Shown here: positions 45,157 through 64,000 of the stretch, one piece after another | Layout: every line of letters starts with the position of its first letter | Position numbering within the stretch: position 1 is the first letter of the stretch | Assembly (NCBI GenBank): GCA_965116475.1 | Contig: OZ220691.1 | Location: forward strand, 512,001 to 576,000 | Reading direction: 5' to 3' | Source of the DNA: Gemmatimonadota bacterium | GTDB lineage: Bacteria > Gemmatimonadota > Gemmatimonadetes > Palauibacterales > Palauibacteraceae | Length of the DNA: 64,000 nucleotides | Notes under the pieces: generated by a model | The model's input: the letters and a program-made list of their open reading frames with translations, nothing else | Told to the model about the DNA's origin: nothing | Databases searched by the model: none | Program-made: the position numbers and the translations under genes

Positions 45157-47875
45157 AGAAATCGTAGCGCAGCCTCACCAGGGCCAACCGCCCCATCTCC
45201 GGCGCCCCGACGAACTCCCGGTGCCGATTGTCGAGCAGGTTGTACACCGTCAGCTCCAGGCGTGCGTTGGGCTGGAAGGGAAGCTGATACGAGGTCGTCA
45301 CGTCCAGGACGTGGTAGGCGTCCACGGGCCCGGCGAACACGCCCGACCGCATGTCGAACCCATCCGAGAAGCGCCAGCGCCCGTCGAGCAGGAATCCCCG
45401 GGCGCGGTCGGTGAACGCGAACCCCAGCGAGCCCTTGTGGCTCGGGGCATTGAGCGCCAGGTCGTCGCTTCCGGGGCAGTCCCCGTCCTCGTCGAAGTCG
45501 AAGCACTCCCTGCTCTGGAAGGAGTAGCCCGCGGTCAGGCTGACCCGGTCGGAGACGATGTACTGGGTGGAGAAGTCGGCGCCCCAGTAGCTGGCCGAGC
45601 CGAAGTTGCGCGAGGCCATCAGCAGGTCCGGCGCGTCGAACTGGTCCGGAGTGACGGCGCCGACCGGAACCGACGCCAGGCCTTCGGCCAGTTCCGCGAT
45701 CTGTTCGGCCGTGACCGCGCCGGCCTCGACGAGCGGCCCGAGACGGCTCGCCAGGAACGCGCCCGTGGAGGCCGGGTCGAGGAAGACGTTGGGCGATTCG
45801 ACCTTCAGCGCGCCGACGAAATTCTCGACGTTGGCGAAGTACACGTCGACGGCCAGCCGCAGGCGGTTCCGGATCAGTCCCTTGTAGCCCGCCTCGATGC
45901 TGTTGAAGACGGTCGGCAGGAGTTCGGGCAGCTCGAGGGGACCCGAGGCGAGCGGGAACGCCTCTCCACCGGCCGGTCCGAGCGCGTCCGTATTGAGACG
46001 CCGGAAGACCGTACCGAGCGCGGGATCGGTGGGCCGCGCTCCGGGTGCCAGCAGGAAGGACCGCAGCGTCGCGGGGGCGAACTGCTCGACCAGCGCGTCC
46101 CAGAACAGCCCGGCGTTGGCGGGGAGCTGGCCCGGGAGGAACGGGGAGCGCATGCAGTGGCCCATGAATCCCCCCTGGCACCGGTCCGAGAAGGTGAGTC
46201 CCCCGGAAGGAACGCCGCGCGCGCGCAGCGTGTATGCGACGCCCGGCGCGATCGGGACCCGGCCGGTCGGGATGTCCAGGAACAGGGCAGACGTCGAGGG
46301 CGTCGCGTACGCCTGGTTGTAGGTCAGCCGCAGGTTGTGGCCCTCTGCGGGACGAAACACGAGCGCGGCCCGCGGCGAGAGGTTGAGTTCCGCCAGGCGG
46401 TTGTGGTGGTCGACGCGCAATGCGGTCACCAGGTCGAACCGGTCGCCGAGACGCGTCTCGGAGTGCAGGTAGGCGCCGGTCTCGACCAGCAGATCGTCGT
46501 CCTCGTTGCGGCCGTAGATCGTGCCCTCGGACCGCGGCTCGGTGCGCTGCCAGTCGAACCCGTAGGTGAAGCGCTGCCGCGGGCCCCAGTCGAACCCGTG
46601 CTGCAACTGGGCCGCCATGGCGCGCGACCGGTCGACGATCAGGTCCCCGGTGCGCAGCAGGTAGCTGTTGTCCCCCGAGTGCGTCTGGTTCACGAAGAAC
46701 TGCGCGAACAGCCGGCCTTTGAGCACCCGCGCCTGCCCGTAGCGGTACTGCCAGTCGTGCGTCTGCGCGGACCCGACGCTGGTCAGGTTGATGCTGCTCA
46801 GCGAGTTGTTGAGACCCCCCGACAGGATGAATTCACCGTCGTCGGAGAACCGGAAGTCGGTGCGGACGTCGGCGAAGTAACGCTCGTTGACCGGGTCGCG
46901 CACACCGATGCGCGGCTGGCCGGGGCTTGCCTCGCGCGCCGCCACCTCCCACGGGTCCACGTACTCCCAGTCGTTCCCCCGCAGGTACTGGCCGGAGACC
47001 TTCAGCCCGAAGCGCTCGGACGCGGCGTGCGCGCTCCGGAAGAGAAGCTGGAAGACGGACCGCTCCCCGCCGCCCATCGAGACCGTCGTGCCCGGCCTGT
47101 CGATCGGCGAGGCCGTGATGATGTGCATGACGCCCTCGGCCGCGTTGGGGCCGTAGAGGGCGGCCCCCGGTCCGCGCGCCAGCTCGATCCTCTCGATGTC
47201 CATGTCGGTGGTGGGGATCATGTTGATGGCGTTGATCCTCAGCGCCGGGATGCGCGCATAACGGTTATCCACGATGCTGAGCAGCCGTCCGGACGAGACG
47301 TTGTTGAATCCCCGCACCACCACGTAGCTCTGCGTCAGTCCCGTCGCGGCGAGGTCGACCCCGGGCAGGGTCTTGATGTGGTCCGCCGGCGTGCGCGCGA
47401 TGATCCTGGACAGTTGCTCGCCCGTCAGGGTCGAGATGGATGCCGGAGCGTCGAGTTCCTTCTCCTCGCGGCGCGACACCGTGACGACGAGCTGGTTGAG
47501 GGCCAGGGCCCGGGAGCGGAGTTCGATGGCCACCGACACCGTGTCTCCCGCCCCGACGCGCACTCCGTCCGTGCGCGACGTCTCGTAGCCGATCCGGGTC
47601 ACGAGGACGGAATGCGTGCCCGGCGGCACCGAGAGGCGGAAGGCGCCCGATTCGTCGGTGGCGACCCGCCCGTCCGACAGCCCGAGCACCCGGACGGCGG
47701 CGGCGCTCACCGGGCTGCCCGTCTCGAGGTCGGTCACCCGCCCCGCAATGCCGGCCTGCTGGGCGAGGAGGTTCAGAGGGCTGAGTACCGCCAGCGCCGC
47801 GAGCACGACGAGCGCGTTCCCGCGCGCTCTCAGCGTCTCCCGACCGCCCGTGTGGTGCTGGTCTCCACGCGTCAT
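45155..47875 (-). CDS. TonB-dependent receptor with carboxypeptidase-regulatory-like N domain
   Basis: IAGRVTD..TG.PV, LVVTVSRR, RIELARGPGAALYG.NA..GV, C-terminal RLRYDF; ATG 47875 overlaps the upstream stop. Confidence 0.92.
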   Translation of the reverse strand: MTRGDQHHTGGRETLRARGNALVVLAALAVLSPLNLLAQQAGIAGRVTDLETGSPVSAAAVRVLGLSDGRVATDESGAFRLSVPPGTHSVLVTRIGYETSRTDGVRVGAGDTVSVAIELRSRALALNQLVVTVSRREEKELDAPASISTLTGEQLSRIIARTPADHIKTLPGVDLAATGLTQSYVVVRGFNNVSSGRLLSIVDNRYARIPALRINAINMIPTTDMDIERIELARGPGAALYGPNAAEGVMHIITASPIDRPGTTVSMGGGERSVFQLLFRSAHAASERFGLKVSGQYLRGNDWEYVDPWEVAAREASPGQPRIGVRDPVNERYFADVRTDFRFSDDGEFILSGGLNNSLSSINLTSVGSAQTHDWQYRYGQARVLKGRLFAQFFVNQTHSGDNSYLLRTGDLIVDRSRAMAAQLQHGFDWGPRQRFTYGFDWQRTEPRSEGTIYGRNEDDDLLVETGAYLHSETRLGDRFDLVTALRVDHHNRLAELNLSPRAALVFRPAEGHNLRLTYNQAYATPSTSALFLDIPTGRVPIAPGVAYTLRARGVPSGGLTFSDRCQGGFMGHCMRSPFLPGQLPANAGLFWDALVEQFAPATLRSFLLAPGARPTDPALGTVFRRLNTDALGPAGGEAFPLASGPLELPELLPTVFNSIEAGYKGLIRNRLRLAVDVYFANVENFVGALKVESPNVFLDPASTGAFLASRLGPLVEAGAVTAEQIAELAEGLASVPVGAVTPDQFDAPDLLMASRNFGSASYWGADFSTQYIVSDRVSLTAGYSFQSRECFDFDEDGDCPGSDDLALNAPSHKGSLGFAFTDRARGFLLDGRWRFSDGFDMRSGVFAGPVDAYHVLDVTTSYQLPFQPNARLELTVYNLLDNRHREFVGAPEMGRLALVRLRYDF

Positions 47876-48645
47876 GGCCAACTCCCTGGCCGCGGCTGCG
47901 ACCGGTTGATGCCGCCGGGGCCGTTTCGGCGGGCGGCGCGTTCGTCTTCCAGGGCGCGCGTCATGCCGCTGGCGATCAGGCCGGCGGGGACCGCGACGAT
48001 TCCCATGCCGCAGATGAGGACAAGGAACGTGAAGATCCTGCCTCCCAGGGTGATCGGGTAGGCGTCGCCGTATCCCACCGTCGTGAGGGTCACGACTGCC
48101 CACCAGAGGCTGTGGAACGCGGACTTGAACTTCTCCGGCTGGGCCTCGTACTCGAAGTAGTGGATGCCCATGGCCGCGATGTAGAGAAGGACGAGGGTCG
48201 CGAACAGGAAGACCAGCGCTTCGTCGCGCGCGTGCTGGACGGCCTTGCCCAGTCGAACCATCGCGGTGCTGTACTGCACCACCCTGAACACGCGGAAGAC
48301 GCGCAGCAGGCGAAGGCCCCGTACCGGGCGGAGATCGATCATGGCGGGCCACAGCAGCGTGACGAAGAACGGGACCACGGCCAGCAGATCCACCACGCCG
48401 TAGAAGCTTCTGACGTAGCCCCACCTGTCTTCCGCCGTCCAGATCCGGAGCGCGTACTCGATCGTGAAGAGGACGATGATCACCGTCTCGACCGTGGCGA
48501 GAATCGTCCTCCACGGGGGCGGCAGGTCGGGGAACGTCGACAGCGACAGCGATACCAGCGAGGCCAGGATCAGCACCAGCACGCACTTGTCGAACAGCCG
48601 GCCGGCCGCCGTATCGGAGTCCTGCACGATGCTTCGGATGTTCAC
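47872..48645 (-). CDS. Voltage-gated-type K+ channel (6TM ion transporter)
   Basis: S4 RGLRLLRVFRVFR; pore SLWWAVVTLTTVGYGD. Confidence 0.92.
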   Translation of the reverse strand: MNIRSIVQDSDTAAGRLFDKCVLVLILASLVSLSLSTFPDLPPPWRTILATVETVIIVLFTIEYALRIWTAEDRWGYVRSFYGVVDLLAVVPFFVTLLWPAMIDLRPVRGLRLLRVFRVFRVVQYSTAMVRLGKAVQHARDEALVFLFATLVLLYIAAMGIHYFEYEAQPEKFKSAFHSLWWAVVTLTTVGYGDAYPITLGGRIFTFLVLICGMGIVAVPAGLIASGMTRALEDERAARRNGPGGINRSQPRPGSWP

Positions 48646-48728
48646 GGGCGAACCTCCCTTCGGACCTATCGGGACGGAAGCTCGAGTCCGGCGCAAGCAG
48701 AATCTAGCGTGGCGTGCGACCTTGCAGC

Positions 48729-48968
48729 ATGGCTACCAGGCAAACACGAAACATCTCGCTTCCACCGCAGCACCGAAGGCTGCTCGAGAATTGGCTCTAT
48801 GAAGGCCTCAGCGACGAGGAGAGGGACCGGGTCCCGCCCGCGCTACTGGAGCGCGTCAGAGCGCACTTCCGCCAACTTGCCGAAACCGCCCTCCGCGAGG
48901 TCGAGGACGGCCGCGTGACGGACGGGCCCGCAGCCATGCAGCGGTTGAGAGAGCGAATCGATCACTGA
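48729..48968 (+). pseudogene. ParD-like antitoxin, probably internally deleted; no ParE partner
   Basis: MATRQTRNISLPP start and EDGRVTDG..AMQRLR tail, but the expected SGRY..ASEVVR core is absent. Confidence 0.45.
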
Positions 48969-48999
48969 CCCGGATCGAACCACTACACGTGCTTGAGCT

Positions 49000-49050
49000 C
49001 AGCCTGAAACGCCGACCTCGGCGAGGCCGGGTGTCAGGTGAATACCGTAT
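49000..49050 (+). repeat. Imperfect-hairpin repeat, copy A (empty IS1111 target-like site), left edge of the defence island
   Basis: 44/51 identities plus a 3-nt indel versus 63462-63515; CCTGA...TCAGG dyad. Confidence 0.85.
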
Positions 49051-49173
49051 CAGAACATCCTCAGGCACTAATGCCGGCGCGACTGGCTGTCGAGCAATTG
49101 CCTTACATTTACATTCCGTTTCATAGTACGATCCCAGACCGTCCCCTGCCCACATCACCTCTCGATAGCAATC

Positions 49174-50043
49174 TCACTTCCGTTGTCTTGACACCTTTAT
49201 CGTTCCGTCCTTCCCCTTGCCTTCTTCTTCGTTTGTATCGGCAGTTTTCCTCTGAAACATCGTACGAAAGCCTGGACCACGCACCCAACTGAATGTGGCC
49301 CCTACGAGCGCACTCGCCACTGCAGCTACCGACGTCGCTAACAATATTGTGGAATCGAAGCTGTCTCTAGCAACTGCATCTCCTACTCCGCCTAGTTCGC
49401 TACTGACGATGGCAACGGTGCCGGCGACCATCGATACTAATCCCGCCGCTGTTACAAGTCGCAAACGCTGAATCCTCGCTCTACGTTCTTCGTATCTCTT
49501 TAGTTGGTTGACCCAGCGCTGGGCCGCAGCACGTTGCGTTTCCTTTCCAAGTATCAGCGCGATCGATTGGAGTCGGTCCGGAGGTGTGTAGTCGTACATA
49601 TCGATGTGAAACATGTTACTCGCCATATCCCAGCGCTTCTCTTCCGCATATGACCGCAGACTGTGTAGCGCCGAGATTACGGCCGTCTTTGGCAATCCGA
49701 GTTTCAGCTTTGCTAGCTCATCTCTAAGGATTAGCAGACTAACCTGAAACTCGGGATCGTCATCTCGATCTTGCTCCAACAGATCCACACATTTATTCAG
49801 GAGTCCATGGAGGCGCGTAAATCGGTGACTCTTAGAGATGTACCTCATCCACAGAATATATGATGCTCTTACAATTCCAACGATTGCAGTCGCTTCAATG
49901 GCAACAACAACGTTTACAGGACCGTCTCGCCATAAACCTAATGTTAGAATATATATTGACGCCAACAACCACGAGACGGCGCGTATGCCGCGGTCCAGTT
50001 TCTCGTCGATCAGACCCGAAAAGTAGTGTTCAAGGAGACTCAT
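49174..50043 (-). CDS. Hypothetical membrane protein (two TM pairs flanking a soluble region)
   Basis: ATG 50043 with GAGG; lower GC; last gene of the co-oriented defence cluster. Confidence 0.6.
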   Translation of the reverse strand: MSLLEHYFSGLIDEKLDRGIRAVSWLLASIYILTLGLWRDGPVNVVVAIEATAIVGIVRASYILWMRYISKSHRFTRLHGLLNKCVDLLEQDRDDDPEFQVSLLILRDELAKLKLGLPKTAVISALHSLRSYAEEKRWDMASNMFHIDMYDYTPPDRLQSIALILGKETQRAAAQRWVNQLKRYEERRARIQRLRLVTAAGLVSMVAGTVAIVSSELGGVGDAVARDSFDSTILLATSVAAVASALVGATFSWVRGPGFRTMFQRKTADTNEEEGKGKDGTIKVSRQRK

Positions 50044-50095
50044 CGGCAAACCTCGTCCGTGTGTGCTTTGAGGGAATCCGCATGCGATGTTGACT

Positions 50096-50962
50096 TCATA
50101 GTTTCCACTCAGGATGGCGAATTGAATCATAGAACTCCACGCATGGAGCCGCGGGAGGGCAAAGCCCCAGTCGCTGCCGCCCACCATCCAATAGGGACGC
50201 CAGCTCGTCATAATACTGCCCTTCGCCGTCCCACGCTTCCGTCGCGTCGGCGGCCAGCAACTCAAGGCGTCGACGATAGGCGTACGAGACCGTGTCTGCT
50301 ACCTGGATGATTGGAGAATGCTCAGATTTGATCGGGAACGGCGTGTTTATGATCTGATTGAAACGGTCGTTGGTGCTCCACTCCTTCCATACCCGTACGT
50401 TGCGGCCCTTACGTCGTCTTGTGATCCTTTTCTGGTACAGGCCGTCGAACCATGGATCGCCTGCGTAAATGGCGTCCGAGAACGCTGGCATAAGGCGTTT
50501 GTTGTCGTCCATCACGACCACGGTGTGCCCCTTGTTGCGAGTGAGGAGTTGCATCTTTTTTTGTACAAGAGACATGGTGAACATAGCAGCTAGGAGCCAA
50601 GGATCTTTGTTCACCGCGGGGAAGTCGGTCGAACAGTCAAGAGCTTCCCGCGTGGCGTCGAAAGACAGTCCAATCCCGAACACCTTGCCACCGTCCGCGA
50701 CCGCTAACCCGCAGATGTCCTGAAGGAATTCCTTGCGATCAACCGCAGATATTCTCCCCCAGGCGCCGCGGCCGTTGATGAACTGACTGGTCTTGAGTTC
50801 GCTCCGTCGATATCCTGGATACCGTGCCAGCATCTCCCGTATCATTTCGCGGACGATGTGCGTCCGGAGGCGCAATTTGGTAGCATCCACCATCACTCCA
50901 CACATGACGAACACGTCACTCTGATCGGTTTGGCCACTCTCATCGACATATAGGAACTTCAT
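50096..50962 (-). CDS. DUF3800 domain protein
   Basis: LYVDESG, ELK, D(D), S.....IQVAD. Confidence 0.85.
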   Translation of the reverse strand: MKFLYVDESGQTDQSDVFVMCGVMVDATKLRLRTHIVREMIREMLARYPGYRRSELKTSQFINGRGAWGRISAVDRKEFLQDICGLAVADGGKVFGIGLSFDATREALDCSTDFPAVNKDPWLLAAMFTMSLVQKKMQLLTRNKGHTVVVMDDNKRLMPAFSDAIYAGDPWFDGLYQKRITRRRKGRNVRVWKEWSTNDRFNQIINTPFPIKSEHSPIIQVADTVSYAYRRRLELLAADATEAWDGEGQYYDELASLLDGGRQRLGLCPPAAPCVEFYDSIRHPEWKL

Positions 50963-51121
50963 CCCCTCCGAACCCTCCTCACTCGGTAGCCAGTCCGATC
51001 TCGCACAGCGAGCGTGCCGGCAGTTCGAGAGGACTCGCTCCGCCCTTCACGCCGCGGGTCGTCGAGCGACCCCAAGCCTCGCCCTTCGCACCCACAGCAT
51101 GGCACCCCTGCGACTCGTCCT

Positions 51122-53212
51122 TCACCTTCCCTCCAGTTCCAGCGCTTGTCGCACCAGTCTCAACGCCGGCCCGACATCTTCTTTACGTCGCAGGTCGACC
51201 AACACACCTCCATCGTACCTCGATCCCACGAGGAATTTCCAACGCCTCGCATCCCGTGCGATCCCGTCATCATCTTCGATCTCGTTGACCTCTGGCGCCA
51301 TTAGCAGCAACAGCCTCCCCACTCGCGGCAGCACCTCCACAAAGAACTCTTGAGCATGATAGCTGATCGACTGACCCTCCGCGATTTCCACGATCACCGA
51401 ATCCAACTGTTTGATCTCCTCTCTCACCACACCAAGCAGTTCTCGAGCGTGGCTATTCATCTTTACCTTCTCGACGCTCCCTCGCTTCGACCGCCTGACG
51501 AGATCCTCATACTTCGCCTTCTCCAGCAGCTCCGGTGCCACCGCCAGGCGCGGCCAAATCGCCAAGGTGCGGCGACACAACGTCACACCCCGCTCTCGCA
51601 TTTGAGCCGCAGTCCACACGTTCTGCTCCCTCACAAACCGATTCAAACGGACCGCACTCTCTGCGAAGCCACCCTTGATTGTCTTTTTCTCCTCGAAGGA
51701 TCGATCCGACATCTCACTGTTATACCCAGTCAATGTCAGGTTCCCGAGCCGGTGCAGCCATTCCTCCTGTATCACCTTCCAATCTGATCCGAGCATCGCT
51801 TGCCAAGCAGTGGGGAGTCGCGCGTTCTGTGGCATAATATGTTCAATCGAATACTCACTCGTATCGGTTACTTCCTTGACATTATGATTCTCCAACCGCT
51901 CCAAGAGGACGCGACAGACTCTCTTCCCGTAGATGTTCTGTTCAAGCAGCTGCGTTTCGAACTCCTGATTTTGCGGAAATCTGTAGTTCTTTGACTGGCG
52001 TGCCAATCCGACCTTGAGGCTGTCCAATGGCCCCGTGTCCTGAATCTGGTGCGCCAATCTAGCGAAGGTACTCCAATAACCTCGGGTCTGGAGTCCGCAG
52101 ATTGCACGGCGAAACACATAGCTTTCCAGCAGATCCAAAGCTTCGATGAACTCCTCAGTTCGCAGTGTCTTGAGTCTCTCGTGACAATCGTAGAGGCGCA
52201 TTACCAGGATCGCAGGAACGTCAACCAACCTCCGGAGCCGACGCAGGGCTGGGCGGAGGTTTTTGTCGATAACGCCTCTACTGAGACTGAAAGCCGCGTA
52301 ATACCGGGCATATCGAAGCATCTCCACCAGCGCCTCCTCCAAGTCGCCAGCTTCTGCGCATAGCGTATCGAAGGCGCGGCGGAACGCATGATAGATCTCG
52401 TCGGCTCGACCCTGTTTCGCCGCCTCAGTCTTAAGGGCCACGTAGTCTCGGAAGAAGCTATTCGATCGGTCGCCATGCCCCTGAAATAGCAATTCGATCT
52501 TGTGCCAGTACTGTTCATACAGTTTCGTTTGCTCTCGCTCCGGGAGCCCCATGAGAACGAAGTTTCGTATTAGATCAGAGGGGCTGAGGTCGACGCCCGT
52601 TGAATTCAAGCTCTCGAATATCGCTTGCGGGTCATCATGCGAGTGCAATCGCACATCCACCACGTCAAGACGCTTGATGCCCCTATAGATTCTCTGTGGA
52701 TCCACTTCCGCCATGCGGCCCTGAAAGTAGCTGTAGTTTTCTCGAATGCGTGCGGACTCGGTTGAGGGGGGTTCGGTCTCATCAAGGATGGCGGTCAAGG
52801 TCTCGTGGTCGTGGCGCCGGAGGACGAGTTTTGGGCGGTCGGGATCCGGCAGTGTGGGGTTACGCAGGAACTGCCTGTCCAGATTATCTCCCGTCAGGTA
52901 AGCGTCCTCATACTCGGACCGCGTTACGAGGTCCCGGAGGGCAGCCGCCATAAGGACCACGGTGGTGAAGCGCTGCTGGCCGTCGATGAGCAGCCATCGT
53001 TGAAGGGACGCCTCGGCGTCGTGCGAAGGAGCGTATACGATCGAGCCAAGAAAATGCCGTGCGTCGGAGGGAGCGTCAGCAACGGCCAAGACATCCTGCC
53101 AGAGTTGTTCGCATTGCTCCGCAGTCCAGCTGTAGTCGCGCTGGAAGACGGGGATGAGGTATTGCCGCTGGCCGTCGATTAGCCTGATCAGAGGGTTATC
53201 AGTGGCTTGCAT
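51122..53212 (-). CDS. GmrSD-like DUF262 + DUF1524 (HNH) protein with C-terminal extension
   Basis: IP.FQRDYSW, LIDGQQR, IFESLNSTG..L...DLIRN, SIEHIMPQ, LGNLTL..YN. Confidence 0.9.
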   Translation of the reverse strand: MQATDNPLIRLIDGQRQYLIPVFQRDYSWTAEQCEQLWQDVLAVADAPSDARHFLGSIVYAPSHDAEASLQRWLLIDGQQRFTTVVLMAAALRDLVTRSEYEDAYLTGDNLDRQFLRNPTLPDPDRPKLVLRRHDHETLTAILDETEPPSTESARIRENYSYFQGRMAEVDPQRIYRGIKRLDVVDVRLHSHDDPQAIFESLNSTGVDLSPSDLIRNFVLMGLPEREQTKLYEQYWHKIELLFQGHGDRSNSFFRDYVALKTEAAKQGRADEIYHAFRRAFDTLCAEAGDLEEALVEMLRYARYYAAFSLSRGVIDKNLRPALRRLRRLVDVPAILVMRLYDCHERLKTLRTEEFIEALDLLESYVFRRAICGLQTRGYWSTFARLAHQIQDTGPLDSLKVGLARQSKNYRFPQNQEFETQLLEQNIYGKRVCRVLLERLENHNVKEVTDTSEYSIEHIMPQNARLPTAWQAMLGSDWKVIQEEWLHRLGNLTLTGYNSEMSDRSFEEKKTIKGGFAESAVRLNRFVREQNVWTAAQMRERGVTLCRRTLAIWPRLAVAPELLEKAKYEDLVRRSKRGSVEKVKMNSHARELLGVVREEIKQLDSVIVEIAEGQSISYHAQEFFVEVLPRVGRLLLLMAPEVNEIEDDDGIARDARRWKFLVGSRYDGGVLVDLRRKEDVGPALRLVRQALELEGR

Positions 53213-53267
53213 GAGGGCTCCGGTCGTTGCAGTGCATTAGCGGGCCGAAGGAAAGGCCGTTGCCATG

Positions 53268-56200
53268 CTAGGTTGGGGTTCGCCGGTATGCGAGGGCAAA
53301 CACAGTATCGCCGAGCCAGCGCTTGAAGTCGGTGTTGTCTACGAACTGCTTGAACAGCTCGGTGTCGTCCTTCATGATGCTCGTCATCACGCGGGCGAGA
53401 GCGCGGTCGTGCTCGATTCGGGCGTTCTCGCGGTCCGAGTTCTCCCGGGCGTTCTTGAAGGCCGGGTCCTGCGCCACCTTGGCCGGGATCGTCTCGGTGA
53501 TCATCTCTTGGACGCGGTCATCGTGCTCCCACTCGATCGCGCCGAACAGGTCGTTGAACTCGTCGATGATCCGGGACAGGCGGTCGATCTCGGGGTCGGG
53601 GCGCCCTCCCCCGTTGACGCCGGGCACCGGCTCGATTTCGGCGTCCTCGTCGGGGAGGATGATCTTCTGCATCGCTTTCTTCTCGACGCGGTAGCTGTCC
53701 ATGTCGATCGTTTCGAGGATGCCCTTCGAGAGGTCCTCCTCCGCGGGCGCCGGCAGCTTCGGGATCAGGAAGTTCAGGAAGATCGAGCGCTCTTCCCAGC
53801 CGGGGTTGCTGTAGGGGAGGATCGAAGACAGGAAGCCGTAGGTCCGCACGAAGCCGCGGGCCTTGCTCTTGAACGCGACCTGTTCGTCTTCGTCCAGGTC
53901 CTCGATGTACACGGCGACGCACTGGTCCAGGATGGGATCGAGTTGGTCGCGGTCCGCTCCGTCCAGATAGCCCTTCACGAACGCCGTGACCTGCTCCAGC
54001 CGGTACACGTGGGCGGCGTCCAGATCCGCCTGGAGGTCGTGGAGCTTGTTGGGGTCCGTCTCGTCGGCCAGGACCGTCGCGCGGTAGTAGTCGGCGAAGG
54101 CCTCGGTGATCGTGTCCGTGTCGTTCAGGAAGTCCAGCACGAACACGTCGTGCTTCTTGGGGTGCGACCGGTTGAGTCGCGACAGGGTCTGGACCGCCTT
54201 GATCCCGGAGAGCGTCTTGTCGACGTACATGGTGTGGAGCAGCGGCTCGTCGTAGCCGGTCTGGAACTTGTCCGCGCAGATGAGGAAGCGGTACGGGTCC
54301 TCCTGGAAGGTCTCGGCGATCTTGCTCGGCGGGAAGCCGTTCAGCGTGGCCTCGCTCACCTTTTTCCCGCCGTACTCGTGTTCGCCCGAGAAGGCGACGA
54401 TCGCCCCGTAGCGGCTCTTCCGCTCCTCCAGGTAGTCGCGGATGGCGTGGAAATACTGGATCGCGCGCTCGATCCCGTTGGTCACGACCATCGCGCGCGC
54501 CTTGCCGTCGATCTTGTGCTGGGCCAGCACCTGTTCGTGGAAGTGGTCGACCATGATCTCGGCCTTGAGGCGGATCGCATGGTCGTGTCCCTCGACGTAG
54601 CGGCGGAGCTTCTTGCGGGCCTTCCGGACGTCGAACTCCGGGTCGTCCTCCACCGTCTTGGCGAGCTTGTAGTAGCTCTTGACCGGCGTGTAGTGCCGGA
54701 GCACGTCCAGGATGAAGCCCTCCTCGATCGCCTGCTTCATGCTGTAGGTGTGGAAGGCGCGGTGCCGGACGGTCCCGTCGCTCTGCGGATCCGGCTCGCC
54801 GAAGATCTCGAGCGTCTTGTTCTTCGGCGTGGCGGTGAAGGCGAAGTAGCTGGCGTTGGGGAGCAGCTTCCGCGACTCGATCAGACGGTTGATCTGGTCC
54901 TCGTACGTCTCCTCCTCCTCCGCTTCGCCCGCCTCGCCCAGCGCGCTCGCCATGGCTGCGCTGGTCTTCCCTCCCTGACTCGAGTGCGCCTCGTCGATGA
55001 TGATCGCGAAGGTGCGCCCGCGCTGCTCGTTGCCGATCTCGTCGAGAATGAAGGGGAACTTCTGGATCGTCGAGATGATGATCTTCTTCCCCTGCTCGAT
55101 GAACGTGCGCAGATCGCCCGACTTCTCGGCGTGCCCCACCGTCGAGCTCACCTGCGCGTACTTCCTGATCGTGTCGCGGATCTGCCGGTCGAGGATGCGG
55201 CGGTCGGTGACGACGATGATCGAGTCGAACACGGGCGCGCCGTCCTTCTCCAGCCGGATCATCTGGTGCGCCAGCCAGGCGATCGAGAAGCTCTTGCCGC
55301 TGCCGGCGGAGTGCTGGATCAGGTAGCGGCTTCCCGCCCCGTGCTCGCCGGCGTGGGCCAGCAGTTGGCGCACGACGTCGAGCTGGTGGTAGCGCGGCCA
55401 GATCTGGACTCGCTTCTTCCTCCCCGTCTTTCGGTCCTTTGACGCCACGACCTGCGCATAGTTTTCAAGCATGTTGGTCAGGCTCTCCCGGGCCAGCACC
55501 CGACGCCACAGGTAGTCCGTGGCGAGCCCGTGGGGGTTGGGAGGATTCCCCGCCCCGTCGTTCCAGCCGCGGTTGAACGACAGGAACCAGGAGGCCTTCC
55601 CCTTCAGGTGCGTGCAGAAGTGGATCTCGTTCTCGTCGACCGCGAAGTGCGCCAAGCAGCGCCCCAACCGGAACAGCGGCTCGCGCTGACTACGGTCCCG
55701 CCGGTACTGCCGCATCGCGTCGCTGACCGTTTGTTTCGTCAGGCGGTTCTTGAGTTCGAACGTGAAGACCGGGAGGCCGTTGATGAAGAGTCCGATGTCG
55801 AGAGACCGCTGGGTCTCGTCGCGGCTGTACCGAAGCTGGCGCGTGACCGTGAAGCGGTTCTGCTCGAAGCGCTGCCTGGCCTTGACGTTTTCGGCCGAGG
55901 GCGTGCCGTAGAAGAGGTCGAGGTCGTGCGGGCCGTGCTTGATGCCGTTGCGGAGGACATCGATGGTGCCGCGCTTGTTGATCTCGCCTTGGAGCCGGGC
56001 AAGGAACTTGCGGCGGGTGGGGCCGTCTTCCGTGAGACGGAGGGCGGCGGCGGCTTCAGGTTGCGTGATGTAGAGGAAAGTGCGGAGTTGAACGAGGTCG
56101 ACGCAGTACTCGCGGTTGTAGTCGTGATGGTTACCTTGAGACCAACCTACGCCGCCATGGCGTGCGGGCGGTTCTCGTACGGTCGGTCCTGACGGAGGAT

Positions 56201-56270
56201 CGCAGGGGTCTCCAGTCAGAGCCTTGCAAATCAACCGCTCGAAGCTCCGTTCATTCATATCGGTTGTCAT
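53268..56270 (-). CDS. hsdR: Type I restriction enzyme R subunit
   Basis: D..LFINGLP...ELKN, QHSAGSGKS, IDEAHSSQ, FTATPK, KFQTGYDEP, QTLSRLNR. Confidence 0.95.
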   Translation of the reverse strand: MTTDMNERSFERLICKALTGDPCDPPSGPTVREPPARHGGVGWSQGNHHDYNREYCVDLVQLRTFLYITQPEAAAALRLTEDGPTRRKFLARLQGEINKRGTIDVLRNGIKHGPHDLDLFYGTPSAENVKARQRFEQNRFTVTRQLRYSRDETQRSLDIGLFINGLPVFTFELKNRLTKQTVSDAMRQYRRDRSQREPLFRLGRCLAHFAVDENEIHFCTHLKGKASWFLSFNRGWNDGAGNPPNPHGLATDYLWRRVLARESLTNMLENYAQVVASKDRKTGRKKRVQIWPRYHQLDVVRQLLAHAGEHGAGSRYLIQHSAGSGKSFSIAWLAHQMIRLEKDGAPVFDSIIVVTDRRILDRQIRDTIRKYAQVSSTVGHAEKSGDLRTFIEQGKKIIISTIQKFPFILDEIGNEQRGRTFAIIIDEAHSSQGGKTSAAMASALGEAGEAEEEETYEDQINRLIESRKLLPNASYFAFTATPKNKTLEIFGEPDPQSDGTVRHRAFHTYSMKQAIEEGFILDVLRHYTPVKSYYKLAKTVEDDPEFDVRKARKKLRRYVEGHDHAIRLKAEIMVDHFHEQVLAQHKIDGKARAMVVTNGIERAIQYFHAIRDYLEERKSRYGAIVAFSGEHEYGGKKVSEATLNGFPPSKIAETFQEDPYRFLICADKFQTGYDEPLLHTMYVDKTLSGIKAVQTLSRLNRSHPKKHDVFVLDFLNDTDTITEAFADYYRATVLADETDPNKLHDLQADLDAAHVYRLEQVTAFVKGYLDGADRDQLDPILDQCVAVYIEDLDEDEQVAFKSKARGFVRTYGFLSSILPYSNPGWEERSIFLNFLIPKLPAPAEEDLSKGILETIDMDSYRVEKKAMQKIILPDEDAEIEPVPGVNGGGRPDPEIDRLSRIIDEFNDLFGAIEWEHDDRVQEMITETIPAKVAQDPAFKNARENSDRENARIEHDRALARVMTSIMKDDTELFKQFVDNTDFKRWLGDTVFALAYRRTPT

Positions 56271-57707
56271 GAGTGGGTATGGTTGAGAGCCGGAGCGGGA
56301 TCCGACTCTTCCCAGTCCTCGGCAAGAGTCGCCTTGGCATCTCGGTGGAGATCGCCTTCGAGGCTGTGGCGTCGGGGCAGCGAAGCCGCGGCCTCTCGCA
56401 CGTCGAGCTTGCCGGTGACGACATCGGCGATCAGGCGGCTGCGGTATTCTCGCAGCAACTCAACCTGTCGTTCCGCGCGGGACAAAGCCACATCCAAGTC
56501 CTGCTTCCTTCGGTGTATCTCTGTAACGAGCCTCTGCTGTTCGGCGAAAGGGGGCTTGAGCACCCGTAGCGCTCCGATGTCTTCCATGTTAAAGTGACCC
56601 ACAGTAGTTCCTTGTGTCGCTAACCGGACATGGTCTCTGGGTGGTCCCGCGTAGATCATGTAAACGAGTAGATTTGGATCATATTCGCCTCGCCTCGACC
56701 GCATTAGTACCGTGCGCTGCCCTAGGCAAACGTTTGCATCCTTGGGCACAACACATGCTTCGCCAACAGGAGCTTCTCGCGTGAAGATCACGTCACCAGG
56801 CTCCGGCTTGGTTCGCCTTGTCCACGCCTGAAACGCCTCCTTGCTGGTGCAGTAGGTGCCTTCCCATCGGAGGCTCCCTCCCCGAACAGCCGTCGTTCGC
56901 ACGACTCGATACTCGCTATCGTCAACCTCAGGCGCTGTCCTGTGCTCGCAGTCCACCAACCGGTCAAGAACCCACTTCAGGGCAACCACATCCCAATGCT
57001 CAGGTACTTTCCCCATCCACTCCACACCGGAGTCCTTGTAAGCCGGGTACGGCTGGCCGGTTCGGGCATCGATCTGGCCTGTGACGGCTTGATGGATGAT
57101 GGCCCGCTTCTGTTCCTCCAGGAGTTCGATCAACCGTTCCTTTGCGCTGACGTAGCGTCGGATGCGCCAGTCAACGTGGTCGAGGAAGCGGACGATCGCT
57201 GCTTGCTCCGAACTCGGCGGTACGGGAACCAGTTGGTCCCCGAAGGCCGCAAAGCGGAAGTCGGTCGATCGCTCCCGAACACCCCGAGAGAGAGCCGAGA
57301 TCCATTGGCTCCGAGCCATCTCGCGGATGCATGACGCGTAGTAGTGCGAGTTCGTAGCGCCGTGTCTCGGCGCACAAACCGAATACACCGGTGTGCACTT
57401 ACCATCCGAGTCGGAGACGCCGCAGGCACCGGCAAAAGCGTCCATCGTGTGGATCACGAGATCACCACGGCGAACTCCCTGATAACCAATCTCCTTCAGT
57501 GACTCCGTGAAGCCTGAAGTTCGGCGGTTCTTTCGAAGCGTCACTGTGCCATCGCGAAAACACGTGACTACGTCGTCACTCGAGGTGACCGGTCGATCCA
57601 GCTTTGCAAACAACGACTTCGACCGCATCACTGACCAATGCTCTGGCACCGTGCCAAGCCATTCCACACCGGAATCCCGGAGGGAATCGTAGGGTCTCGC
57701 TCCGCTA

Positions 57708-57715
<8 letters not shown>
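56267..57715 (-). CDS. hsdS: Type I RM specificity subunit
   Basis: Two TRDs with repeats DSGVEWLGTVPEHW / DSGVEWMGKVPEHW, PP..EQ, VTGK.DVR. Confidence 0.95.
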
Positions 57716-59849
<2,134 letters not shown>

Positions 59850-60206
59850 GTTTCCCCTGGTGGCTCCTTGGAATCGTCAAGTATGCTTGAGCGTTGCAGA
59901 TCTCACCACGACCACTCAAGGATCCGTTGGCAGATGCAGGTACGGCAGGGAATGCACCTACGGCAAGTGCCCCCCAAAAAACGGGGGGGCTGACAAGCGC
60001 CTCGTACGCGAACCAGCCCGCAGGCGAGGTTCCCATTCTCTTCTGCAAGGCAGCACAGCCCGCCAGTCCCAAACCCATCTGAAGCGCTGACCTCGGCGTC
60101 AACCAATGCCGTACTTGTACACCTAGCTAGGAGCCGCTGTTGACAACCTGCGTGGAATCCGCTTTCATGTGTGCTTCCGACGACCACCGATTCCATTCTC
60201 GACGCC

Positions 60207-61019
60207 ATGAACACCTTTAAGCCCAAGAGTCTAGCTGAATTCGTCGACAACGTGAACGAGCTCGATCAGTCGATTGACGGCCCTCTTTGGTATAGAGGTG
60301 CGTCGAAGTTATCGTACCGCCTCCTACCGAGCCTGTATCGTCCCCGTCCCACGAGCACTCCTCCGCTTAGCCTTTCCGAGCTCGAACAGCGACTCGTCGA
60401 CCGCTTTCGCGAGCGTAGCATCCCCTATCACGCACACCCTCTAGATCCTGACGATCTCGAGATCCTGTTTCTAATGCAGCACTTCGGCGTCCCGACTCGT
60501 TTGCTGGATTGGACCGAAAATCCATTCTTTGCACTCTTCTTCGCGCTTCGGCACGTGTCCTTCCGCCGGGGCACGCACGGCGACATGTTCTGCACGCACG
60601 ACGCCACCGTCTGGGTGCTTGACGCTGCCGCCTGGAACCGCGCAGCCCTGAAACACCTTAGCTATGATGTCGGACCACTTGACCCTAGTCACGAGAGTGT
60701 AATCCCTTACCGTTCCATCGGGAGCATCCACGAGCTCCCGTCACCTCCCGTAGCCTTATACGGTGCCCACACAAGTTCTCGGATCGTTGCCCAACAGGGA
60801 ACCTTTGTGCTATTTGGGAAAGAAACGCGGCCCATGGAAACGATAGCAGCCCGCTCCATGTTCCCAACGGAATGTCTAGTCCGCCTCGTTCTCACTCGCG
60901 GCGTGATTCGAGAACTCCGTCGTGCCCTCTTCCGTCACGGCATCACCGAAGCCGCGCTGTTTCCTGACTTGGAAGGTCTGGCGCGTGACCTCAAACACAC
61001 TTTTGGGTTTTCGCTATGA
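60207..61019 (+). CDS. FRG domain protein
   Basis: WYRG, MQHFGVPTRLLDWTENP..ALFFA, RIVAQQG.F, LFPDLEG. Confidence 0.9.
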   Translation: MNTFKPKSLAEFVDNVNELDQSIDGPLWYRGASKLSYRLLPSLYRPRPTSTPPLSLSELEQRLVDRFRERSIPYHAHPLDPDDLEILFLMQHFGVPTRLLDWTENPFFALFFALRHVSFRRGTHGDMFCTHDATVWVLDAAAWNRAALKHLSYDVGPLDPSHESVIPYRSIGSIHELPSPPVALYGAHTSSRIVAQQGTFVLFGKETRPMETIAARSMFPTECLVRLVLTRGVIRELRRALFRHGITEAALFPDLEGLARDLKHTFGFSL

Positions 61020-62083
61020 TTTCACCGCCTCGATTTAAGATTCGGCAACATGATGCAAGGACTCTCTCTTGGTGGCGGCATCGCCGCGATCAGATTGATA
61101 TGAACCCACCATATCAACGGCGCGGTCGGTTATGGTCTTCGGCCGATAAGGCGTATCTTGTGGACTCGATTCTAAACGAATTCGATATTCCAAAGTTCTA
61201 TGTCGCCGATTTCACGTGGGGCAACTCACAGTTGAACGAAGCTCAGCTTCCTTATGCCATCATCGATGGCAAACAACGATTCGAAGCCATCTTTGATTTC
61301 TACGATGGCAAGATTCAACTGCAAGATGATTTTGAGTATCGATCGAACCCTAAACACAAGCTGGGCGGGCTGAGCTATCGCGACCTGCGCGACAACTACG
61401 CGGATGTAGCGGAAGTATTCGACAATTTCGTCCCACATGTCATGGGAGTGTACGCTGAGGAGGAAGGCAAAATCAACGATTTGTTTGTCCGCCTGAATCG
61501 TAGTAAGCCGCTGACCGGCGCCGAGATCCGAAACGCCATGGGAGGACCAGTACCAGCGATCCTACGTGAATTGGCGAACCATGAGTTTTTTGCAGAGATT
61601 ATACGATTTAACGTGAAGCGCGGCCAAGACCTAAACGCCGTAGCTAAGATATTGTTGTTTGAATTCTATCATGAACTGCGAGATACAAAGAAACGCAACT
61701 TGGACGAGTTCGTGGAGAGCGTCGGGGCGGATAAACAAGAGCGATTGGAATTGGCGGGACGGAAGATCGTCGATGTTCTCGATGATATGCGTGATGTGTT
61801 TTTGCCGCGAGATCGGTTGTTGTCGTCATCGGGTATCGTGCCGGTGTACTATTGGTTTATGCGCGAACGAACACGTAATGAACTGCCCCGAGTTCGACGA
61901 TTTATTGTTGGCTTTGAAGAAAAGCGGAAAGAGCACCGCCGAAGACTTCGCGACCAGCCCGGGATGGAGGAGGTGGATCACGAACTGACGGAGTACGATA
62001 ACTACAACCGAAGCACGAATGACGTGTCAAGCCACCGCGGGCGAGTTAGGATCCTCACGCGGCGTTTCAAGAAGTCACCCTAA
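61016..62083 (+). CDS. Stand-alone DUF262 domain protein
   Basis: P.YQR..LW, VDSIL...IP, IIDGKQR, F.RLN..KPL...EIRNA; ATGA overlap with FRG; no HNH motif. Confidence 0.88.
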   Translation: MISPPRFKIRQHDARTLSWWRHRRDQIDMNPPYQRRGRLWSSADKAYLVDSILNEFDIPKFYVADFTWGNSQLNEAQLPYAIIDGKQRFEAIFDFYDGKIQLQDDFEYRSNPKHKLGGLSYRDLRDNYADVAEVFDNFVPHVMGVYAEEEGKINDLFVRLNRSKPLTGAEIRNAMGGPVPAILRELANHEFFAEIIRFNVKRGQDLNAVAKILLFEFYHELRDTKKRNLDEFVESVGADKQERLELAGRKIVDVLDDMRDVFLPRDRLLSSSGIVPVYYWFMRERTRNELPRVRRFIVGFEEKRKEHRRRLRDQPGMEEVDHELTEYDNYNRSTNDVSSHRGRVRILTRRFKKSP

Positions 62084-62469
62084 TACGTTGCTGTCGCTAT
62101 GCGCGAGGTTCCCGAGCCACACGTGGCCTTGTGCGCTTCGGGGCATTGATGGGCTCGCCGCGCTTCGGTGAGCGAGATTACGCTGAAGGAGGCATGGTTG
62201 ATGGATGATGAACGGAGTGATGCGCAAGTGCTGGCGTCGGACCACGGTAGGATTCAGGCTCTCTTGACATTGAATGAACTTCTCCTGTACAGAATGCCCA
62301 AGGACGATTTGCGCGCTGTACGACAGCTTGTAGACGGTTTGCGGATGGACTAGCGCATGCTCGCAACGAACTCGGAAGGGGTCCTTGAGGCACCCGAGTT
62401 CCCCCGCCACTATTATGAGGGGTACACGGAGCAGTTTGACCGCTTTATTGACCGAGTCAGCCGCTAGCA

Positions 62470-63383
62470 TGTTCCTGACCCGGAGTCGGTGCGACAGATT
62501 CACCGTCCTGACTACACCTTGTTGGCGCCGGTGACCTCCATCGGCGTCCGGCCGCGAGTCCAGCGTCCGGTGTGGGCGCGGTCCTCGTTGTAGTAGCGAA
62601 GGTATCTCTCCAGATCGCGGCGGAGACCCAGGAGGCCGGGTACGAGGTACTGGGCGAAGGCGGGCTTCCAGCACTCCTCGAGGATCGTGCCGTGCACCCG
62701 CTCCACACAGCCGTTGGTCTGGGGCCGTCCGCTGCGGATGAACCGGTGTTCCGCGCCGAGGCTCGCCACCGTGTCCCGGAACGCCTGCGCCCGGAACTCG
62801 TTCCCGTTGTCGGTCAGCACCGCGCCCAGCTCCCGGCCGAACCGCTTCAGATCTCCGGCCACCCGCCGCGCCAGACGGGAGGCGTAGCGGGCGGCCGGGT
62901 TGTGCGGTGTCACATGCAACTCGGCCCACGTATACGCGCTCCCCACGTCGATCGCCGTGTACTGCCACACCACCCCCCGGGTGCCCCTGAGCTTGCCGAC
63001 CCGGAAACAGTCCAACTGCACCAGCTCCCCGGGCTCGTCCACCTCCAGACACCACCCGCTGCTCCACCAAGGCCGGCGTGGCGTTCGGCATCCGCAGGTG
63101 CCGTCGCTCCCGTGGCCTCAGCGCCTCCGGCCCGTAACGCTCCAGATCCCGACGCCACCGGTAGAACGTCGCGGGGTGGATCCCCGAGACCTGGCACGCC
63201 TGCCGCACGTTGCCCAACCGCTCGGCCAGCGCCATCGTCCCCAATCGATACCGGTGAAGCATGTCCTCCTAGGTCATGGTGTTGCTCCTGTGGTTCTGAA
63301 ATCCTTGATCAAACTTCAAACCACCGGATGCCATCACCGCACAGGGGGATGCGCCTGTGTCGCTCCATCTCGGAATCAGGACA
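62470..63383 (-). mobile_element. Decayed IS481-family element
   Basis: TGT...ACA ends with ~26-bp imperfect TIRs (TGTTCCTGACCCGGAGTCGGTGCGACA vs reverse complement TGTCCTGATTCCGAGATGGAGCGACA); CTAG near both ends. Confidence 0.85.
62512..63277 (-). pseudogene. IS481 transposase pseudogene
   Basis: ATG-ACC-TAG nonsense at codon 3; HTH (GNVRQAC...TFYRW); frameshifting deletion near 63050; rve domain PGELVQLD...AID...TDNGNEF...PQTNGCVER...YN..R.H. Confidence 0.88.
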
Positions 63384-63461
63384 TGCTAGGTCTTCGAGAG
63401 AAGGGGACCCGGAAGCCTAGGAGGAGCCGGAAGAAGTCAACCCGGAAGGAAATGAAGACGA

Positions 63462-63515
63462 CAGCCTGGACCGCTGCCCGCGGCGAGGCCGCCGGGTGTC
63501 AGGCGACTACCGTAT
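63462..63515 (+). repeat. Imperfect-hairpin repeat, copy B (occupied by IS1111 at its 3' CG), right edge of the island
   Basis: Direct repeat of 49000-49050; similarity stops where the IS end begins. Confidence 0.85.
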
Positions 63516-63563
63516 GTGGACGCCCGGAAATGGGCGAGTACGGATTCGGAACCGAGTCGGTGG

Positions 63564-63721
63564 CAGTCGGGTCAGGTACTGTCGTATGTCCGGCCTCTTG
63601 CTGCAGCCCCTTTTTGGGCCGCGGGCCCGTATGGTGTTCGTGAGATCGGATCCAGATCGTACTTGCGGGCTCTCAGGCCCTCCGGTAATCATTGGTTCTT
63701 CCGACCCCGTCTTGCTGACTG
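63564..63721 (-). ncRNA. Predicted bridge/seek RNA of the IS1111 element
   Basis: Two internal loops closed by hairpins. Loop strands TGATTACCG/AAGTACG resemble the target; ACATACG matches the IS end and CCATACG is its paired strand. Boundaries approximate. Confidence 0.7.
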
Positions 63722-63803
63722 TGTGCCCTTACCCGTTTCTCGCGTCCTGCTGTCCACCCCTCCCTCCAGCGCCTTTGCTTTCGCTGTTTCTCTCGCCGCC
63801 CGC

Positions 63804-64000
63804 TCAGGCGACAACTCGAACTCGGTAAGCCTCCTTTCGTGTGGCCAGCGCCCAGACCCTCCGCGCCGTCCTGTTGGCGACCGCCACCGCGACCACTTTC
63901 TTCGGCTTCCGCGCCAATACCCCGGCCAGCCACGGATCCGTGATCTCGCCGCGTCGGCTCGCGTGGCTGAACGACCGCCATGGCTTCCCGTGACCAGGAG
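63804..64000 (-). pseudogene. IS110/IS1111 transposase C-terminus (two apparent +1 frameshifts)
   Basis: Manual translation LLVTG/AMAVVQ/HASRRGEITDPWLAGVLARKPKKVVAVAVANRTARRVWALATRKEAYR*, the typical IS110 A.ANK.AR..W tail. Confidence 0.82.

Follow-up and report, generated by a model that had tools for sequence, protein, structure and literature searches.

The sequence analysed is a 64,000-nucleotide stretch from a Gemmatimonadota bacterium (G000:C1:512001-576000, hereafter the window; G000 is the genome under study, and the other G-numbers denote relatives). Its right-hand part holds a series of defence genes flanked by two directly oriented copies of a ~52-base repeat, copy A on the left and copy B on the right. 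A degraded insertion sequence (IS) of the IS1111 type is inserted in copy B. The initial annotation of this DNA regarded the two repeats as a hairpin-forming recombination site that delimits the island and is parasitised by the IS. The results presented below indicate that the repeat is very probably the terminal inverted repeat (~50-55 bases) of a ~1.24-kb insertion sequence of the IS481 family, and ordinary debris at this locus.

The repeat pair

Both repeats are present on the + strand as first described, at window positions 49000 (copy A) and 63462 (copy B). The quoted alignment of the two contains 7 mismatches among 51 aligned bases (44/51 identical) plus a 3-base gap, and a search of the window with the pattern of the shared core gave two occurrences, where 100 shuffles led to an expectation of 0. 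The drop in GC (guanine plus cytosine) content said to coincide with copy A is also real (0.64 to 0.54 at 49000). The two copies are not a unique pair, as further same-strand copies and a diverged inverted copy exist elsewhere in the genome. Extra + strand copies were found at genome positions 579275 and 585613 (3.8 and 10.2 kb to the right of copy B, both beyond the window end) and at 722127. A diverged copy occupies 580347-580516 on the minus strand, and position 1090681 holds a piece with the tail only (genome coordinates).

The hairpin, which had been taken as a distinctive feature of the repeat, folds near the level of shuffled sequences. DNA folding of four copies against shuffles yielded z = -2.0, -0.95, -1.57 and -1.42, and the minimum-energy structures differ among the four. 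Over 37 aligned copies the CCTG...CAGG helix is 89.5% paired, which is explained by conservation of the sequence itself (27 of 75 alignment positions are conserved at ≥90% in the same copies). There is one compensatory cell, and covariation equals that of the shuffled control. On the fold z-scores together with the covariation test, the hairpin was rejected as a selected structure.

Evidence for an IS481-family terminal repeat

The 17-mer core of the repeat (≤1 mismatch) is present in 21 of 35 same-genus genomes, with 1-11 copies each, and a reversed-pattern control produced 1 match in total over all 61 genomes. The same coding tail precedes the repeat in 14 of the 28 relatives' loci listed. 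When this tail is read back from a TGA, a transposase C-terminus (...YNRNRPH...GRTPYQVFKKGIRKP...KTAA*) is obtained in 9 of the 10 loci tried; the longest such frame has 236 amino acids (aa; locus L008), the others being shortened by frameshifts. The transposase frame terminates at the TGA of 'GCAGCCTGA', a motif at the inner margin of the element's right end.

The reference element is 1243 bases long (L035:1020-2262, in G016); its right end is the repeat, and its left end is a partial copy of the repeat in inverted orientation. The right end reads ...TACCGTACTTGTACA (more fully ...GGTGATTACCGTACTTGTACA) and the left end TGTTCTGATACGG... (more fully TGTTCTGATACGGTAATCACC...). Two further near-complete copies at 90% identity, in G032 and G014, share both ends and lie in unrelated flanks, so that both terminal inverted repeats are common to the three near-complete copies and the flanking DNA differs. 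The element encodes a single transposase, with a helix-turn-helix part and an rve (DDE) part (Pfam HTH_29, HTH_28 and HTH_32 in the N-terminal and rve and rve_3 in the C-terminal portion). The full-length transposase of the G016 copy, with its one in-frame TAG written as X, matches the IS481 equivalog model NF033577 of NCBIfam with 235 bits (cut-off 224) over profile positions 2-284 of 284; the 235-aa C-terminal part by itself has no NCBIfam match. Because the repeat is continuous with the transposase frame and borders near-complete IS copies, its assignment as an IS481-family terminal inverted repeat appears well founded. IS481-family elements of this kind are common in the genus and mostly decayed.

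The element resembles its family in passing the IS481 equivalog cut-off, in having one gene within ~1.24 kb and in its TGT...ACA ends. Unlike the family, it has long inverted repeats (~50-55 bases), with the stop codon falling within the right one; the reference copies have a 27-base hairpin insert in their left end; and a stop or frameshift separates the DNA-binding from the catalytic part in the copies seen.

Several peculiarities of the element and its ends were observed. What separates the DNA-binding from the catalytic part is a frameshift in G032 (L037) and the in-frame TAG in G016 (L035), the two positions being nearly the same; either decay or regulated recoding at this site may explain the interruption. 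The 27-base insert in the left inverted repeat of L035, L037 and L038 (e.g., L035:1045-1075) has the potential to form a small hairpin (C-run, A-run, G-run) and is without counterpart in the right end and in copy A. At L085:7884-7958 (G024:C7) and in L031 (G008:C47), two ends stand back to back within ~65-90 non-coding bases; these look like derivatives of the IS resembling miniature inverted-repeat transposable elements. Finally, several right ends are directly followed by a second, degenerate copy of their last ~15 bases (TACC..A.TTGTACA). This applies to at least four ends (L011, L018, L031 and the right end of L083, L083:13855-13890) and also to the right flank in L078; the doubled tip may reflect insertion beside an older end.

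Copies of the IS end in this genome

The copies in G000 are fragments of different extent (Table 1). Compared with the reference IS, copy A is 86% identical to right-end positions 1183-1232 and 96% identical (25/26) to left-end positions 6-31. Its tip (GTATCAGAACA) is of the left-end type in reverse, and an identical tip is present at the left ends of the three near-complete copies. Copy B consists of ~70 bases of decayed sequence from the 3' end of the transposase gene, followed by the right inverted repeat through ...ACCGTA; the final 8 bases of its repeat (CTTGTACA) are displaced 921 bases downstream, outside the window. Copy B and the two downstream + strand copies have ~50 extra upstream bases in common that find no match in copy A, and the dead transposase tail on these three right ends measures 70-170 bases. 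No intact transposase of the IS481-family element was found in G000, where tblastn detected remnants only, with 0 matches at E ≤ 1e-20. All copies in this genome are thus fossils, since no intact copy exists there. The same-strand remnants composed of tail plus end stand at the boundaries of three gene blocks.

Table 1. Repeat copies, insertion sequences and genes in and beside the defence island of G000, from left to right. Reference positions are those of the 1243-base IS481-family element.
Feature	Window	Genome	Strand	Description
Ion-transport channel gene	47872-48696		-	Pfam Ion_trans 1.2e-38
ParD-type antitoxin remnant	48714-48968		+	Alignment to intact homologue in G006
Copy A	49000-49057	561000-561057	+	Very probable solo terminal inverted repeat, without transposase tail
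DUF3800 protein gene	50096-50962		-	Pfam PF12686 1.1e-15; no PADLOC match
GmrSD-type (type IV) restriction enzyme gene	51122-53212		-	Pfam GmrSD_N 1.1e-34, GmrSD_C 1.7e-23; PADLOC Orf5 9.8e-156
Type I restriction-modification (R-M) operon	53268-59849		-	hsdR 53268-56270, hsdS 56267-57715, hsdM 57708-59849 (Pfam); PADLOC REase_I 1.2e-44, Specificity_I 5.1e-89, MTase_I 6.1e-250
FRG-domain protein (PDC-S15)	60171-61019		+	Pfam FRG 4.3e-21; PADLOC PDC-S15 3.5e-48
DUF262 NsnA-like protein	61016-62083		+	Pfam GmrSD_N 2.7e-14; PADLOC NsnA 4.1e-29
Second IS481-like transposase, 395 aa	62075-63262		-	Pfam HTH_29, HTH_28, HTH_32
Copy B	63399-63514	575399-575514	+	Reference positions 1123-1232, 76.7%
Degraded IS1111-type element	63515-64000 (part in window)	575515-576435 (L004:1515-2435)	-	921 bases, 435 of them beyond the window
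Next copy		579230-579335	+	Reference positions 1140-1243
Inverted copy		580347-580516	-	Reference positions 1070-1239, 70%
Fourth copy		585453-585656	+	Reference positions 777-876 joined directly to 1123-1226 (internal deletion)

A second IS481-like transposase gene adjoins the copy B remnant. It is apparently open, and the 9 bases at its 3' end are shared with the end of the DUF262 gene. The encoded 395-aa protein is a different IS481-like transposase, 34% identical to the core of the reference transposase. It matches the NCBIfam IS481 model in its N-terminus only (43.9 bits, under the cut-off), and rve is not reached at the Pfam threshold. A second copy of the gene was not found in the genome, nor were inverted repeats detected around it.

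An IS1111-type element inside copy B

The proposal that an IS110/IS1111-type element uses the repeat as its target is borne out by the junctions in copy B and in G017. In G000 the element is inserted inside the inverted repeat of copy B, between ACCGTA and CTTGTACA, with the junctions ACCGTA/TGTGGAC... and ...CCATCGTA/CTTGTACA. The open reading frame (ORF) of this remnant has weak Transposase_20 / IS110 matches. Intact copies in G017 are ~1406 bases long and 91-93% identical at the DNA level, and ~490 bases are missing in the G000 copy. An intact G017 copy encodes a 356-aa transposase that scores 318 bits with NF033542, the IS110 model (140-bit cut-off), and contains the Pfam domains DEDD_Tnp_IS110 (PF01548) and Transposase_20 (PF02371). 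Subterminal inverted repeats are present in G017 (GTGGACGCCCCC / GGGGGCGTCCAC, 12 bases) and in the G000 copy (GTGGACGCCC / GGGCGTCCAC, 10-11 bases); the extensions beyond them total 10 bases, 4 of which are ambiguous, and are compatible with 7 + 3. In L068 (G017), 290 non-coding bases lie downstream of the 356-aa gene and 47 upstream. The IS1111 type is described as having subterminal inverted repeats of ~11-13 bases with short asymmetric extensions, and a longer non-coding region downstream of the transposase gene (PMC11187229).

Within the non-coding region, two variable segments surround a conserved stem (CGGGCTC-TCAGGCCC). In three lineages (G000/G017, G011 and G008), these segments match the flanks of the element itself, on the right directly and on the left as the reverse complement, and the segments of one lineage do not match the targets of the other lineages (L068, L078, L069, L072 and L004 compared). 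To judge from this agreement between segments and flanks, the element is probably RNA-guided (of the seekRNA/bridge-RNA type), with the two 3' non-coding segments complementary to the insertion site, and the covarying segments look like natural reprogramming of a guide RNA. The likeness to the seekRNA/bridge-RNA elements of the IS1111 and IS110 types, as these are described (PMC11187229, PMC11208160), extends to the long downstream non-coding region, to segments that match both target strands, and to natural reprogramming between lineages. Unlike those elements, the present one is known from sequence alone, and its occupied targets match one of the segments imperfectly.

The same insertion base is used, in one orientation, in three end copies (copy B of G000, and L068 and L078 of G017), and more distant relatives of the element in G011 and G008 occupy unrelated targets. 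The nearest precedent is reportedly provided by IS4321/IS5075, which are said to insert in the ends of Tn21-family transposons. The two cases agree in the IS1111 type of the element, in its subterminal repeats, in the fixed base and single orientation, and in the location within a terminal repeat that belongs to a different transposable element. They differ in that the target here is an IS481-family end in a high-GC lineage, and in that the copy is degraded (921 of ~1406 bases). No report of IS1111-type targeting of an IS481-family end was found in the literature searched, supplementary files being outside the search.

The defence island and its limits

The DNA between copies A and B is defence or IS DNA, as the initial annotation had described it and as the Pfam and PADLOC matches confirm (Table 1). 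The statement that no integrase or tRNA is visible was likewise upheld: ARAGORN found no tRNA or tmRNA in the window and L004, and the 34 ORFs scanned with Pfam contain no tyrosine or serine recombinase domain. The two repeats, which had been thought to delimit the island, do not do so. Copy B is internal, and the left synteny break lies 1.1 kb to the left of copy A. PADLOC matches continue beyond copy B (PDC-S34, PDC-S44 and PDC-S26), GC content is 0.53-0.67 up to ~12 kb into L004, and the low-GC defence region continues to ~585650-586000. Low GC and defence genes together span ~24.6 kb from copy A to the fourth copy, and the island is ~10 kb longer than was supposed. At L004:5230-6516 (genome 579230-580516), the HAD-like PDC-S34 candidate defence gene stands between two facing IS481-type right ends, in the layout of a decayed compound transposon.

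To the left, the sequence ceases to match the relatives' TonB-receptor locus at window position ~47901; to the right, homology to relatives returns, patchily, from genome position 585726. The ion-channel gene is already part of the variable region because it lies just to the right of the ~47901 break; in relatives, the matches to window 47930-48697 lie at other loci. The TonB receptor of four relatives (G012, G033, G003 and G002) is followed instead by a homologue of G000 genome 1493186-1494583. This gene, homologous to the relatives' TonB-receptor neighbour, sits 930 kb away in G000, which implies a large rearrangement, one of whose breakpoints is where the variable region begins on the left. 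A search allowing up to 7 errors found no inverted partner end near the ~47900 break, and the block of the ion-channel gene and parD was accordingly rejected as a transposon.

The parD-like remnant beside copy A proved to be a genuine ParD antitoxin gene that has lost 30 codons in frame. The deletion takes the ribbon-helix-helix part, the remnant itself has no Pfam match, and no parE follows. At the DNA level it is 76-92% identical to parD loci situated elsewhere in 12 relatives. A single repeat copy beside parD, which might have been expected in island-free relatives, was seen in none of these 12 genomes: the nearest 17-mer is 21 kb from the parD locus in one of the 12, and at least 44 kb away or on a different contig in the others.

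The locus resembles known defence islands with embedded IS remnants in being a low-GC block of R-M, type IV and candidate defence genes with IS fragments at a synteny break. It differs from them in that several remnants of one IS family stand in one orientation at block boundaries, which remains a mild oddity. A related arrangement was observed in G010, where the block in L083 (G010:C1:1081500-1096500) carries an hsdR fused to a Schlafen/AlbA_2 domain, two AbiEi-like genes, a DUF433/PIN pair, DUF5655 and DUF5677. Upstream of the repeats in G000, window 41558-42178 contains eight tandem copies with a 72-base period and 66-77% identity to the reference copy of the array; this is probably a repeat-containing coding region.

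Origin and possible roles of the repeats

The repeat was at first seen as a recombination site or repeat family not previously recognised. On that view it would be a new att-, attC- or dif-like site bounding a 14.5-kb excisable island, with the IS as a mere parasite of the site. That the two copies are direct and that GC content falls at copy A is consistent with such a site, and the lack of integrase and tRNA would suit an unusual mechanism. However, the repeat runs on without interruption into a transposase frame and makes up either end of complete IS copies, copy B lies inside the island and synteny ends 1.1 kb to the left of copy A, and the parD loci of relatives have no copy nearby. Moreover, it is the sequence and not the structure that is conserved, with no covariation, and Rfam at E ≤ 1 gave no match in window 48000-64000 (a search without attC coverage). 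The initial annotation had itself named, as observations that would speak against its proposal, scattered copies of the repeat and island boundaries that fall elsewhere, and both were observed. A recombination site of this kind therefore has a very slight probability, and the repeat is better described as an IS481-family terminal inverted repeat.

More specific versions of a recombination site were considered and rejected. An integron attC site is contradicted by the conserved sequence, by the lack of covariation beyond shuffles and by the continuity with the transposase frame. Integron cassettes are ~0.5-1 kb long and lie beside an intI gene. The blocks at this locus measure 3.8-14.5 kb and no integrase was found in the ORFs scanned from copy A to the fourth copy, so that an integron cassette array was rejected as well. 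An integrase-type genomic island fails on the absence of a recombinase domain in the 34 ORFs and on the position of the repeats, which lie off the insertion limits. Among the best 15 of 64 joints (three sequencing runs, as contigs), there is no joint that skips from A to B. The backward joints 63441 to 49002 (X2 and X3) were rejected as traces of a circle; they represent the fourth copy, because their 22 intervening letters are identical to the copy at 585613.

Another explanation is that the IS ends still act as boundaries of moving defence genes, either in units resembling compound transposons, with the transposase supplied in trans, or by accretion in one orientation beside existing ends. 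Some loci have the layout that this would produce. In G010, two inverted tail-plus-end remnants (positions 1071-13868 of L083) enclose 12.5 kb with type I R-M, AbiEi and PIN/DUF433 genes, but this unit has no flanking target-site duplication. In G000, the PDC-S34 gene lies between two facing right ends (579335 and 580347), and end clusters in G016, G024 and G020 adjoin methyltransferase, Schlafen/ATPase, and HEPN plus DUF262 genes; the doubled tips of at least four copies provide a hint of insertion beside an existing end. Against this, the cargo in G010, G016, G024 and G020 is homologous to the present island at only 65-77%, in R-M genes, and apart from these weakly similar genes only the IS ends match. 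Copies A and B are direct and not inverted, and G000 has no intact transposase of the IS481-family element to move such units. The four clusters were picked because ends cluster in them, with no random-locus control. Accumulation of IS elements in defence islands that they do not mobilise is also established. Taken together, we consider working boundaries of this kind improbable. A related suggestion is that IS481-family ends are reusable docking points, where cargo blocks are added beside an existing right end to form a crude, transposase-driven cassette array, with the IS1111-type element homing there; it, too, seems unlikely.

The assignment of the repeat to decayed IS481-family copies has to be weighed against several observations that it does not readily accommodate. 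The reference copy has an in-frame TAG and another copy is frameshifted, none of the copies examined reading fully open. The target-site duplication varies in visibility: a 7-base ATCAGTG is present on both sides in L035, and no duplication is evident in L037 or L083. The exact origin of copy A is uncertain, as it is without the 27-base left insert and its inner half is right-end-like. Four same-strand copies stand within 25 kb, each at a gene-block boundary, for which random decay offers no explanation; the chance of a shared orientation alone is 1 in 8. With respect to the IS1111-type element, a 9-base guide segment is perfect only against the family consensus, and each of the three occupied sites has 5 bases exact.

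With the repeats regarded as IS481-family debris, a history of the locus may be proposed. Variable defence regions would tolerate and accumulate IS insertions, which would account for the IS481-family ends present here. The IS bodies would have been lost through later insertions and deletions, one of the later insertions possibly being the second IS481-like gene next to copy B. The IS1111-type element would then have entered the end of copy B at ACCGTA^CTTGTACA, probably guided by RNA, and would itself have been broken later. On this reading, the copies would have no present recombination function.

The locus is thus ordinary IS debris in a ~24.6-kb defence island at a synteny break, together with a new example of an IS1111 target. 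The main value of the result is negative, in that what had been a candidate for a new recombination site proves to be debris of insertion sequences. It also provides a clear case, in nature, of an IS1111-type element with two guide segments that follow its target over three lineages. IS ends recur beside defence genes in four relatives, and if the ends did serve as docking points, IS481-family ends would organise defence islands in the genus.

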